DNA from: Eledone cirrhosa
Lineage: Eukaryota
Length of the DNA: 64,000 nt
Assembly (NCBI GenBank): GCA_964016885.1
Contig: OZ024759.1
Span: 9,858,001-9,922,000, forward strand
Direction of reading: 5' to 3'
Shown here piece by piece: positions 6,303 through 59,173 of the stretch. A model generated the notes under the pieces. The model was given only the letters and a program-made list of their open reading frames with translations. It was not told the origin of the DNA and made no database searches. The position numbers and the translations under genes are program-made. The number at the start of each line of letters is the position of its first letter. The stretch's first letter is position 1.

Positions 6303-6364
6303 CTCCCTATCTGATGAGTGAACTAGATGTATTGTCTAGGTTCCTGAAACCTTTGGTAATGGAG
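6303..6364 (+). ncRNA. predicted type I hammerhead ribozyme
   Basis: ctccctat-CTGATGA-[gaactaga/tctaggttc stem II]-GAAA-cc ttt gg-TA-atggag; cleavage triplet GUA; stem I imperfect. Confidence 0.65.
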
Positions 6365-6395
6365 TAGTTATATATTGTGTTGTTCACTTTCTAAT

Positions 6396-6907
6396 TATAT
6401 ATGTATATAACTGAGGATCTCTGTCTGTGTGTGAGTGAGTTTGAATCCCTAAAACTCGAGAACCACCCCACCGACTGTTTTCAAACTTTACACATTTAAT
6501 ACTTATGTTTTAAGGAATGTTTTGAGCAAAACAATTTTCAAATTTTCAATGCCCTAGAGACCGCATTAAGCGATTTAGCGACCTCTCTCTATAATTCTTA
6601 GTCTTTCTCTTTTTAGATAGATACATACATATAACGTTGTGCCCTTATATCTGTCTGTATGTTTGGCTGTCTGCTGCCTCCGATTATTCTGCCACCCTTG
6701 CTCAAGACAAATCTCACACTCATTCCCCAAACAGTTGGTAAGTGCACACAACTTCTTCCTCACGTTTTAAGCCACAGTGTTGCTTACTTACGTACCACCA
6801 GACCCTTACTTCTTTGCCAGCCGTGGTTGTGGCAATACTAAGCTTAGCTAAGGCAGTTATATATTTCACAATACCTTATCCCGTGCAACGCCGGGTACCA
6901 CTGCTAG
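6396..6907 (+). mobile_element. non-autonomous Helitron
   Basis: 3' hairpin cccgtgcaacgccggg then CTAG|T; 3' end resembles the Helitron at 42563-43476; 5' boundary approximate. Confidence 0.7.
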
Positions 6908-6930
6908 TATATATATATATATATATATAT

Positions 6931-7051
6931 AATAGGAAAATGTTAGACACCGACGGCAGAGCTCAAGCCGTTTCGACGGCTATTTCTGGACTCCAGAAAT
7001 AGCCGTCGAAACGGCTTGAGCTCTGCCGTAAGGATCTAACATTTTCCTATT
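6931..7051. repeat. 121-bp near-perfect palindrome
   Basis: 38-bp perfect arms 6953-6990 and 6992-7029 around one base, plus 17-bp outer arms. Confidence 0.95.
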
Positions 7052-7430
7052 ACCAACTCTACTACCCTAAGTATTGAGTATTCTGGTGCGTTATGGTCCA
7101 TCTGATTCCTTACCACACCTCCTTCGTTTTATATATATATACAGATCAGTTCCTGTATGAGCAAGGCATGGTCAGCCGACCAGACACTGCACACAACAGG
7201 ACAACCCGTCTAACCCATGCTAGCGTGGAAGAACGGACGTAAAGCGGTGATGATGATGATGATGATGATATCACAGAAAAAAGAGAATCAATGTTGCGAC
7301 GTATGGAATTTATTGGACATATTACAATCGTTTCTCTGGCAACCAGCTCGAGGCACGATCGATATGATGATCGAACCTGATATATCACACGTTGTATGTG
7401 TATTATTAGCACGTATCAATTTTTTTTTAA

Positions 7431-8845
7431 CCCTTTAGCATTTAAACCAGCCATATCCGGCCAGAATTCTCCCACCTCTTTCTGTTCAAACCAGCTGTAA
7501 CCGACCGCTCATACTGATGTTAAGGTATTGTTCTCAAAATAAATATCAAAATCTCATAGATTCTATATTATGTGAGATAATTATGGAAGATAATGTCTTT
7601 ACTGTGAAAATACAATAGTATTTCATTTTACGTCCGCTTTTTCCCTGCTTGCAAGGGTGGGATGGGAACTGATTCTAGCTTGATTTCTACAGCTGGATGC
7701 CCTTCCCAACAATAACCTCATTTACAGTGAGTGCTGGGTGGTTTTTTGCCGTGGCACCTCCATGACCACTTTGCAGTGGAATGATAGGGACCCCAGTCCC
7801 TATCATCTCATTTCTACAGCTGAGGAAACTGGAGCAATGTGAAATAAAATATCTTGCTCAAGGAAACAACACATCACCCAGTCTGAGAATTGAACTCATA
7901 ACCTTTCGATTGCAAGGCCAATACTCTAACCACTAAGCTATGGGCCTCCATATGTAGAGTAATGTAAATGTTATGTGAGATATTATGTGAGGTAAAGCCT
8001 TTACCATGATATTATAATAGCATATATAGAATAATGTAAATGTTATGTGAGATATTATGTGAGGTAAAGACTTTACCGTGAAAATACAATAGTATATATA
8101 GAGTAATGTAAATGTTATGCGAGATATTATGTAAGGTTAAGCCTTTACTGTGAAAATACAATAGTATATACAGAGTAATGTGAATGTTATGTGAGATATT
8201 ATGAGATGTAAAGCCTTTACTGTGAAAATACAATAGTATATATAGAGTAATGTAAATGTTATGTGAGATATTATGTAAGGTTAAGCCTTTACTGTGAAAA
8301 TACAATAGTATATACAGAGTAATGTGAATGTTATGTGAGATATTATGTGAGGTAAAGTCTTTACTATGAAAATACAATAGTATATATAGAGTAATGTAAA
8401 TGTTATGTGAGATATTATGTGAGGTAAAGCCTTTACTGTGAAAATACAATAGTATATATATAGAGTTATGTAAATGTTATGTGAGATATTATGTGAGGTA
8501 AAGCCTTTACTGTGACAATACAATAGTATATATAGAGTAATGTAAATGTTATGTGAGATATTATGTGAGGTAAAGACTTTACTGTGAAAATACAATAGTA
8601 TATATAGAGTAATGTAAATGTTATGTGAGATATTATGTGAGGTAAAGACTTTACTGTGAAAATACAATAGTATATATAGAGTAATGTAAATGTTATGTGA
8701 GATATTATGTGAGGTAAAGCCTTTACTGTGAAAATATAATAGTAAATATAGAGTAATGTAAATGTTATGTGAGATATTATGTGAGGTAAAGCCTTTACTG
8801 TGAAAATACAATAGTATATATATAGAGTAATGTAATGCTAAAGGG
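7431..8845 (+). mobile_element. piggyBac-like MITE copy 1 with expanded 72-bp unit and nested SINE
   Basis: TTAA|CCCTTTAGCATT...AATGCTAAAGGG|TTAA; array about 7950-8835. Confidence 0.85.
7622..7950 (-). mobile_element. tRNA-headed SINE with RTE-type tail; near-identical copy at 40329-40661
   Basis: Minus strand tagcttagtgg...gagttcaattctc head; tail cccacccttgcaagcagggaaaaagcggacgtaaaatga matches the LINE end at 55856. Confidence 0.85.
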
Positions 8846-9129
8846 TTAAATAAGCAATTTCTGAATGTGGCTGAATATATTTGTACTTCTGTGTACCTGA
8901 TGTATACCTGTTGTGTGAACAGGTATAAAGAAGTATATATATTTACATGTACACATCAACAAGCAATGATAGTGATTCATTATCCTTAAATAGTTTAATG
9001 AATAATCTAGATAATGATGAGTCATATATTCCTCAATTGATGTCTCAATTAGTAACACACCAAATTCTCTACCATTACTCTCTATTTCTGAAGTATTTAC
9101 CTAACTTACTTAGTACTAACTTACTTAAA

Positions 9130-56255: not shown

Positions 56256-56934
56256 TTTAAATAATTAAAATATTCACAGATATGTATATAATGTGAAATG
56301 ACACTGGAAGGCCTATATATATATATATACGTGTGTGTATGTATATAAATGTGTGTGTATGTATATATATAAATGTGTGTGTATACATATATATATATAT
56401 ATGTATGTGTATATATATATATATGTGGGTGTCTGATCTACATACACTGATCATAGACACACACACGCATATACACACACATATATATACACACACATAT
56501 ATATATACACACACACATATATATATACACACACACATATATACACACACATATATATACACACACACATATATATATATATACACACACACATATATAT
56601 ATATATACACACACACATATATATATACACACACATATATATATATACACACACACATATATACACACAACACCACCAGCTCTCTCTCTATTTCAATCTA
56701 CTCTCTCACAACCATTATCTCTTTCTCTCTATCCTTCTCTCTCTCTGTTTAAGAAGGTACCCAGAAAACCCCATATCTCTGGAACCCATGCTCCAATTTA
56801 TGCAAAACTTGTTTTATTCCATTTGTATCCCCATTTCAGGGGCAACTTCCTTTCAAAGTATTTCCCCATTTTGCACCCTTTTGGCTGTATTACATTACAT
56901 ACAAGCAAGCAATCACAGACTTTTAGTAATATAT

Positions 56935-57447
56935 AGTCTGGCGTCACGGTAATACTGAAGACCCGACTTCCCACGGGTACAAGCCGAAGCTGAAGTATAT
57001 AGACAATATGCCCCCACACCCTCCCACTGCAAAGTGGTCGTGGAGGTGCCACGGTAAAAAAGCACCCAGCCCACACTGTAAAGTGGATGTGGAGGTGCCA
57101 CGGTAAAAAAGCACCCAGCCCTCACTGTAAAGTGGTCGTGGAGGTGCCACAGCAAAAAAGCACCCAGCCCAAAATGTAAAGTGGATGTGGAGGTGCCACG
57201 GCAAAAAAAGCACCCAGCCCACACTGTAAAGTGGATGTGGAGGTGCCACGGTAAAAAAGCACCTAGTACTCACTGTAAATGAGGTTGGTGTTAGGAAGGG
57301 CATCCAACTGTAGAAACAAGCCAGAACCAGTTCCCTTATGAGCAAGACAAGGTCAGCCGACCGGACACTGCCCACAACAGGACAACCCGTCTAACCCATG
57401 CTAGCGTGGAAGAACAGACATAAAATGGTGATGATGATGATGATGAT
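56935..57447 (+). mobile_element. SINE family B with an internal 49-bp segment repeated five times
   Basis: gtggaggtgccacggtaaaaaagcacccagcccacactgtaaa units; (tga)n tail. Confidence 0.85.
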
Positions 57448-57578
57448 AGATGTATCATTATCCCCCACCCCTCCTTAAGCTCCAGCGCCCCCTGGGGACA
57501 GTAGCAGCCACTTTGAGAACCTCTGATCTGTATCTATGTCTTTCTACCTCTTTCAAGAAAGAGTGTATTGTGACTTAC

Positions 57579-57690
57579 CTGCTGTAGCTGAAGCGGGAAT
57601 GGGTGAGAAATGTTAGGGTAAACTCCAGGCCTGAGAACACGAAGAGATACAGGAAATATACATAACCTATGGTCCGGATAGACGAGAGAT
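57579..57690 (-). CDS. MFSD10: MFSD10-like MFS transporter, internal exon A (most 5' exon found)
   Basis: Acceptor tctctactgcag, donor gtaagt; 112 nt reads (D)LSSIRTIGYVYFLYLFVFSGLEFTLTFLTHSRFSYS(S), matching recalled human MFSD10 LSSLRRLGLVYFLYLFLFSGLEYTLSFLTHQRFQFSS. Confidence 0.93.
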
Positions 57691-58251
57691 CTGCAGTAGA
57701 GAGATATGTCATAACATTAAGACAGGTCAGTAGTAGAGAGAGATATGTCATAGCATTAAGACATTATTTAATAATTGTTTCTACTTTTTGGCACAAGGCC
57801 AGCAATTATCCCAGTGTATCACTGGTACTTTATTTTATCGACCCCGTAAGACATTATTTAATAATAATGAAATTATTGTGTACAGTGCGCAGGTGCACTA
57901 CAACTCATCAAAGGTGCATGTATAGTACATAGAATAATGTACAAATGTCAGGAAAATGAACAGTGTATGAGTCATGATATAATAATAATAACAATAATGA
58001 AATATTGTGTACAGTGCCCAGGTGCACCACAACTCATCAAAAAGTGCATGTACAGTACATAGGGCAATGCACAAACATCAGTAAAATGAACAGTGCACGA
58101 GTCATGATACACAGATGTGTGCATGTGTATGGAAGGGTATATATATATATATATATATATATATATATATATATATATATACACATACATCATATATATA
58201 TATATATATACGATATTAAACAAATGGAAACTATATTTATAAAACCATATT

Positions 58252-58317
58252 TATTTCATTATACATATTTCGGGGATACCATATTAAAAATATGGCATGC
58301 CTTCTTCAGATAAAATA
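58252..58317 (-). ncRNA. predicted type I hammerhead ribozyme, same strand as the MFSD10-like gene
   Basis: tattttat-CTGAAGA-[atgccatatt/aatatggtat]-GAAA-tatgta-TA-atgaaata; plus-strand mirror copy 58358-58415 lacks the stem I 5' strand. Confidence 0.75.
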
Positions 58318-59173
58318 CAATATATAAAATACAATATATAAAAATATGGCATGCCTTCTGAAGAAGGCATGCCATATTTTTAATATGGTATCCCCGAAAT
58401 ATGTATAATGAAATAAATATGGTTTTATAAATATAGTTTCCATTTGTTTAATATCGTATATCTACTCCAAAACTTGTCGAGTGCTTTATATCAGTTATAA
58501 AATATTTACTTGTTGTAACCCAACAATTTTAAATAAAACTTTTGCATATATATATATATATATACACATACATCATATATATATATATATATATATATAT
58601 ATATATATTTAAAGGTTAAACAAGGTTCAATGAGTATATCAAAGAATGAGTTTTACAAAAAGATTCCTCACCTCACCCTCTGTATTATATGTACATTTTT
58701 TCATGTCTCAATCTTAAGGTCTATAAATATTGAGTTTTGTCATATCTTATTCACTACCATGACTGAATCTTATACACATCATATATATATATATATATAC
58801 ATACACACATCATGTATATATATATATATATATATATATATATATATATATATATATACACACACACAGACACACACACATCATATATATATATATATAT
58901 ATATATATATATATACACACACACATCATAGATATATATATATATATATACACACACATACACATCATATATATATATACACACACATACACATCATATA
59001 TATATACACACACACACATCATATATATACACACACACACACACATCATATATATATATACACACACACATACACATCATATATATATATATATATATAT
59101 ATATACTCACACATCATATATGTATATATATATATATATATATATACACACACATCATATATATATATATATA

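Follow-up and report, generated by a model that had tools for sequence, protein, structure and literature searches.

Type I hammerhead motifs in Eledone cirrhosa DNA and their probable origin in the tails of Penelope-like retroelements

What kind of element leaves short islands with hammerhead ribozyme motifs beside TA microsatellites is the question raised by a 64,000-nucleotide stretch of the Eledone cirrhosa genome (GenBank assembly GCA_964016885.1, contig OZ024759.1, positions 9,858,001 to 9,922,000 of the forward strand), referred to here as the window. An earlier note, made from the sequence alone, had claimed five minimal type I hammerheads at 6303+, 18307+, 26746+, 37165- and 58252-, belonging to four dissimilar families in (TA)n tracts, and had supposed that several microsatellite-targeting, hammerhead-carrying Penelope-like families populate this genome. 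The presence of five type I hammerhead motifs in the DNA of the window was confirmed, and self-cutting of the corresponding RNAs is predicted from their sequence. The islands in which they lie are probably the 5'-truncated 3' ends (pseudo-long terminal repeats, pseudo-LTRs) of several families of Penelope-like elements (PLEs), each with a predicted type I hammerhead; the most likely source is the Hydra clade or short, non-coding elements derived from it. The earlier supposition is therefore supported and narrowed to this clade or its short derivatives.

Both strands of the window were scanned with a descriptor consisting of C[U/C]GANGA, stem II, GAAA, stem III, UH and a stem I of at least 4 bp, hammerhead positions being given in the general numbering (C3-A9, G12-A14, 15.1-16.1, H17). 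Six motifs were obtained, namely B (6301-6368, plus strand), D (18302-18392, plus), E-plus (26744-26813, plus), F (37161-37281, minus), G-minus (58250-58319, minus) and a doubtful one at 2211-2345 (plus), and the first five are those claimed before. Their H17 positions, where the cuts are predicted, are 6358+ and 18382+ (both GUA), 26803+ (AUA), 37171- (GUU) and 58260- (AUA); the numbers for B, D and E-plus coincide with the cuts proposed earlier, after 6358, 18382 and 26803. In block-wise dinucleotide shuffles (3 x 100), the mean number of matches was 0.05, 0.03 and 0.04 and the maximum was 2, against 6 in the window, a false rate that is understated because shuffling removes natural hairpins. 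The descriptor search, which the earlier note had suggested as a check, thus recovered its five motifs against 0.03-0.05 in shuffled DNA. The type I core (C3-A9, G12-A14, the A15.1-U16.1 pair, H17 and three stems) is complete in B, D, E-plus, F and G-minus. Further copies, beyond the five of the earlier note, have an incomplete core: E-minus (26575-26644, minus; G12 changed to U), G-plus (58358-58417, plus; stem I lost, its 5' strand being replaced by an inversion junction) and half motifs in the islands C (3' half, 6992-7050) and F2 (scrambled). The U3-A8 core variant had no match in the descriptor scan of the window. The word minimal, applied to the five motifs before, proved loose: all have a short, self-complementary stem III, and the stem II regions of D and F reach 51 and 82 nt. 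The division into four dissimilar families was borne out by blastn of the masked window, in which the sole mutual match was between E (26.7 kb) and G (58.3 kb), at 84-89%.

A hammerhead near the 3' end of an insertion in (TA)n was found in the islands C, D, E, F and G, and this arrangement is weak for B. The 3' ends of the islands meet TA repeats 35-145 nt behind the predicted cut. The distance from the cut to (TA)5 or longer on the 3' side is 83 nt in D, 145 nt in E, 63 nt in F and 51 nt in G, the background being 14.5% of non-simple window positions with (TA)5 within 200 nt. B has a (TG)n tract on its 5' side and a short interrupted TA run on its 3' side, with no (TA)5 within 400 nt; the earlier placement of the motifs in (TA)n tracts holds for D, E, F and G and fails for B. 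In islands C (6932-7129), E (26443-26945) and G (58210-58545), inverted copies meet head to head, and their 3' ends point outward into TA repeats. Island C, with (TA)n on either side, has no more of a hammerhead than its 3' half (GAAA, a stem III of 5 bp, H17 at 7030), and its right arm is extended by 79 nt. In island E, the minus copy is the longer one and the plus copy (26726-26945) is 5'-truncated. In island G, which belongs to the same family, the minus arm stops in (TA)n at an internal TATA and the plus arm bears an extension, so that a 3' extension on one arm only is found in C and G. D sits in a 265-bp island (18198-18463) within a long (TA)nCAGA array (12700-19140), which also holds two near-identical fragments of the end of a long interspersed nuclear element (14323-14620 and 15818-16110) that look like a local duplication. 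F occupies an island at 37109-37452, and F2 (37471-37720, plus) seems to be another tail; at the junction of an inversion it has a scrambled hammerhead, in which a palindromic stem III with GUC and H17 at 37512 can apparently be recognised by eye. No head-to-tail tandem hammerhead units were found by blastn in the window, the copies being single or inverted on opposite strands.

Three of the four inversion junctions fall inside the hammerhead, at 6990 in the stem II loop, at 37505 in the stem III palindrome and at 58357 at the start of the core, as if reverse transcription stalled or folded back there. Between the two arms of island C, 4 of 61 positions are different (7030, 7031, 7033 and 7034), the first of them being H17. 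In this single case, a site that had been cut and re-ligated may have left a scar when it was copied, or two different template RNAs may have been used; the case is a hint of hammerhead use in vivo. The stem III regions are all self-complementary, with predicted self-duplexes ranging from -2.2 (E/G) to -11.3 kcal/mol (D), and stem III alone forms a hairpin in C only. In terms of these folding models, self-complementarity of stem III fits an action of the hammerheads as dimers.

The relationship to the Hydra clade was assessed with 79 Hydra-type loci (L001-L079, partly redundant), in which DKG occurs in none and CxCx5-6CP in 75. Among the 56 loci with at least 250 nt behind the open reading frame (ORF), the same descriptor found a sense hammerhead in 31 and an antisense one in none, locus L032 being counted via its 5' copy. 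A covariance model (R1), built from 18 Hydra-type hammerheads, with 95.6% of cells paired and double changes in 11 of 13 pairs, gave 74 matches in these loci, and from those 74 a second model (R2) was built. In the window, R2 matched to E 2 only D (28.9 bits, E 1.1e-4), E-plus (25.5 bits, E 8.6e-4), G-minus (22.1 bits, E 0.0068), B (17.5 bits, E 0.11), which has a 2-nt bulge in stem I, and E-minus (E 0.21). Moreover, a U-U at 10.1/11.1, as in D and F, is present in 31 of the 52 distinct Hydra-type motifs that were parsed out of 58.

A second motif, conserved and hairpin-like (G-C-T-C-Y, 4-22 nt, Y-G-A-G-C-A-C-T), lies behind Hydra-type hammerheads. Of 41 distinct segments, 31 contained it and 12 did so twice, whereas the ORF windows gave 19 of 453 and the antisense segments 1 of 41; in 29 of the 31 segments it was 48-74 nt from the cut. 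Besides the tails, the motif occurs in the 5' untranslated regions of Hydra-type loci, and it is often doubled, with a spacing of about 60-70 nt. The window contains five copies, all within C (7056-7082, plus, of the type ACTCY...YGAGT), E (26861-26884, plus, with a mirror copy at 26504-26527, minus), G (58464-58485, on the plus arm) and F2 (37557-37579), and they are found 46-75 nt behind the cut; shuffled windows have 0.65 copies on average and 0 of 200 reach five. The motif may be a hairpin formed in RNA or a palindrome in DNA; it is a candidate reverse transcriptase (RT)-binding or promoter element. No description of it was found in literature searches, which excluded subscription papers, Repbase and most of the supplement of PMC8557442, and the word 'hairpin' is absent from the main text of that paper.

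A coding trace points in the same direction. The GIY-YIG remnant that the earlier note had placed at 3816-4150 and regarded as Penelope-like is real and extends over 3816-4268 on the plus strand (frame 1, six in-frame stops), with 3,614 relatives at E up to 0.001. It has no cysteines between GIY and YIG, a CxxC before E and a CxH after N, and the Hydra endonuclease is described in PMC8557442 as having lost CCHH and as having CxxC and CxH around E and N. Judged by these residues, the remnant is a Hydra-clade GIY-YIG endonuclease. Its long relatives are single proteins of RT and endonuclease, the endonuclease being last, with DKT, RW[KR] and CxCx5C, which PMC8557442 also counts among the defining traits of Hydra; the remnant starts at the last C of the CxCx5C linker, with no adjoining RT remnant, and an RT with DKT and RWK is absent from the window. 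Pfam has no family for the remnant or its full-length relatives, and a word-index search of the remnant among longer proteins gave 0 of 31 candidates. Copies of a tRNA-derived short interspersed nuclear element (SINE) are found at 3530-3815 and 7875-7945; the former runs precisely up to the start of the endonuclease remnant, which it probably truncated.

Compensatory stem changes with an unchanged core, to which the earlier note had looked as a mark of genuine hammerheads, are seen for the E/G family, the one family with a second copy. Across the core and stems I and III, 34 of 35 positions are shared by E-plus and G-minus, the exception being the variable N7; in stem II 14 of 31 are shared, and there four double-sided compensatory changes of the G-C/A-U type and one shared C-C mismatch were read from both sequences. 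The family is repeated in public sequence runs, four of which were aligned on 26652-26945, with 6,023 contigs (X1), 29,514 reads (X9), 60 (X5) and 5 (X8) being placed there; X1 is possibly the window's own source and is then not independent. Of 81 variable sites, none among the 40 listed lies in 26754-60, 26792-95 or 26802-03 (core and cleavage triplet). In the same list, the changes 26799 G>A and 26806 G>A each replace a wobble with a Watson-Crick pair, and 26765/26787 and 26766/26786 are variable partner positions at which pairing is kept; equal depth in X5 suggests that the paired changes are on the same molecule.

The depth in X1 was about 255-260 at the junction 26725/26726 and several hundred thousand across 26662/26663. 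The former junction is rare and the latter common, and the minus copy is therefore the principal one. Further joints in the runs lead from 26700 to 26738, from 26720 to 26806 and 26818, and from 26721 to 26801; since the same arrangement recurs with other breakpoints, the inversions seem to arise anew. Many E/G copies have loose ends that stop in TATATA at 26844-26858, like G-minus. Some readings of the runs were rejected. Amplification of island E as a whole palindrome disagrees with the rarity of the 26725/26726 junction and with the other junctions at other loci, and joints between 'opposite strands' are an artefact of the reference stretch used. The read depth of X9 was not taken as copy number, as this is a reduced-representation library in which most reads start in the G-type stem II, presumably at a six-base restriction site. 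The clustering of joints at 26720-26721 does not mark a fixed 5' end, for the reference copy itself stops at 26725.

This pattern is explained by known PLE biology and has already been published (PMC8557442, PMC4209133). For the Hydra clade, canonical hammerheads and (TA)n insertion are reported for almost all families (Craig et al. 2021; PMC8557442). The supplement of that paper contains Hydra-1_Obim from Octopus bimaculoides and a further 26 Hydra families; nearly all of them lie in (TA)n, with hammerheads of the same anatomy. The paper also describes PLE copies that are truncated at the 5' end, truncated copies lying next to each other in inverted orientation, and tails on one side only. 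The window resembles this clade in the (TA)n insertion, a type I hammerhead whose distance to the 3' end is about 30-110 nt, a short palindromic stem III, a frequently unpaired or U-U 10.1/11.1, GUA/GUU cuts, a CCHH-free endonuclease that has CxxC...E...N...CxH, truncated copies in inverted arrangement and tails on one side only. It differs in the far longer stem II regions of D and F, in the AUA cut of E/G and in holding only non-coding ends and one broken endonuclease, and none of its hammerheads equals the motif of Hydra-1_Obim when compared by eye. The metazoan PLE hammerheads described by Cervera and de la Pena (2014; PMC4209133) are likewise mostly single motifs in truncated PLE remnants, with several families per genome, opposite-strand pairs 100-700 bp apart and a palindromic 15.2-16.2 region, and dimer action was proposed for them; unlike these, the window has a stem III of 2-3 bp rather than none, and no U3-A8 variant. 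The metazoan motifs cleave weakly in vitro, and their activity rises in dimers (PMC4209133). Animal non-LTR retrozymes (PMC7229834; bioRxiv 10.64898/2026.07.22.740005) share with the islands the non-coding nature, a length of 200-400 nt, the type I hammerhead and the origin from PLE ends. The definition of retrozymes calls for tandem units arranged head-to-tail and for circular RNA, whereas the copies in the window are single or head-to-head and are known from DNA alone. The term 'hammerhead' is absent from the available part of the octopus repeat annotation PMC13282606.

PLE insertion, according to PMC8557442, involves a protein with an RT plus, at its C-terminus, a GIY-YIG domain that nicks (TA)n and primes reverse transcription there. 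In the islands, priming would take place at an internal UA-rich RNA stretch 3' of the hammerhead, reverse transcription would usually abort within or close to the structured hammerhead, and the inverted arm may arise from a template jump or from priming a second time. From read-through transcripts, the hammerheads are predicted to cut out the element RNA, in most cases acting as dimers via the self-complementary stem III. Because the inserted DNA keeps the sequence 3' of the cut, the template would have been uncut at this site or re-ligated (circular); a circular re-ligated template was proposed in PMC4209133. The copies in the window are dead remnants, none of which has an attached ORF.

Several points weigh against the assignment of the islands to Hydra-type tails. 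The Rfam search that the earlier note had also suggested went against it, as no hammerhead family matched any of the five motifs in island scans with E up to 10; at the gathering threshold, the only match in the window is tRNA-like (7875-7945), and among the best 150 of 290 matches of the whole-window E-value scan microsatellites dominate. R1 and R2, built from Hydra-type loci alone, match neither the 2211 motif nor F, which is the weakest of the five. The scores of R2 are modest (E 0.11 for B), and stem II of E and G is skipped in its alignment. Among the 52 Hydra-type motifs, the cut triplet is GUA in 39, GUU in 9 and AUA, the triplet of E/G, in 1; C4, as in F, occurs in none, and stem II measures 10-30 nt, compared with 51 nt in D and 82 nt in F. 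The rarity of AUA, the absence of C4 and the long stem II therefore make E/G and F atypical for Hydra-type hammerheads. The minimum-energy folds of the E and G monomers lack the three-way junction, and 41 of the 81 variable sites of the E/G alignment are outside the list. The outer pair of the downstream motif is A-T in all window copies, and in the loci instances (n=41) it is G-C in 36 and A-T in none; its pattern was widened after the window had been examined. With tblastn of 150 relatives, no Hydra-type coding remnant besides 3816-4268 was detected in the window, and no RT or endonuclease ORF is joined to any island there. B lies on the same strand 2,042 nt downstream of the stop of the endonuclease remnant, with SINE-like and simple repeats between them (686 nt of repeats found elsewhere in the window, 824 nt of simple repeat and 532 nt of other sequence), and the distance from ORF to hammerhead in Hydra-type loci is 66-524 nt. 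The remnant and B are possibly one interrupted element.

Among the alternatives, the one that survives best, a possible though considerably less probable account, is that E/G, and perhaps D and F, stand on their own as non-autonomous elements, either hammerhead SINEs or monomeric non-LTR retrozymes, and that a PLE protein acting in trans copies them as short units by way of circular RNA. Such an origin agrees with the high copy representation of E/G and the lack of a coding trace, with the island size of 200-500 bp and with the non-autonomous, PLE-end-derived hammerhead repeats, monomers included, of PMC7229834 and bioRxiv 10.64898/2026.07.22.740005, but the window has no tandem units, the junctions vary by locus and the depth drops towards the 5' side, like ordinary 5' truncation. 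The true 5' end of E/G is not visible because the reference stretch ends where copy E is truncated. It is rather unlikely that at least E/G and F are tails of a different PLE clade that bears hammerheads and targets microsatellites (Neptune, Nematis or Penelope/Poseidon): although AUA, C4 and a long stem II are rare or absent among the 52 Hydra-type hammerheads and a microsatellite bias of Neptune is noted in PMC8557442, E/G carry the downstream motif of Hydra-type loci at the Hydra-type distance, and the sole PLE protein remnant found in the window, with Hydra-type proteins as the only queries, is Hydra-type. Chance matches in AT-rich, palindrome-rich DNA, to which the 2211 motif (outside a TA tract, with a competing hairpin), the absence of Rfam matches and the understated false rate of the shuffles might point, are a very improbable explanation, largely refuted for D, E and G, given the 6 matches against a maximum of 2 in 300 shuffles, the compensatory changes between E and G with an unchanged core, the choice of the same sites by the independent Hydra-built model and the constant position relative to the 3' end and the second motif.

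The doubtful sixth motif (2211-2345) has a 94-nt stem II region and a palindromic, fully self-complementary stem III; it is not followed by a TA tract, and the competing hairpin folds better. A repeat that is also present at 37766-37914 comes after it. Other RT remnants (Pfam RVT_1) are located at 279-1388, 53512-54003 and 59046-59825 and have no similarity to Hydra-type proteins in tblastn. The first of them, on the minus strand, is a 369-aa open frame with an RT (RVT_1, E 1e-32) and then a PHD finger, the remnant of a non-LTR element. At 44216-52158 there is a tandem array of about 8 kb with a unit of roughly 48 nt, itself occurring as a 2.6-kb duplication.

Summarizing, the preferred assignment to the tails of several PLE families, most likely of the Hydra clade or its short derivatives, adds at least four, and probably six, hammerhead families to the known group, and it reveals a density of remnants at which five intact-looking motifs in 64 kb are invisible to Rfam. 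The role of PLE hammerheads is unsettled according to PMC8557442. We also consider, as an unlikely extension, that the palindromic stem III pairs two element RNAs, which are then cut and re-ligated, and that the PLE protein recognises the conserved hairpin, which follows the cut by 45-75 nt, and takes two templates at a single nicked (TA)n site. If true, this would account for the head-to-head insertions and for the differences between the arms of island C from the predicted cut (7030), the downstream hairpin would be an undescribed cis element of Hydra-type tails, and the window would keep footprints of an unsolved PLE replication cycle. A high-copy family with varied inversion junctions, a second conserved motif and a possible cut-site scar may permit direct genomic tests of the circular-template and dimer models.

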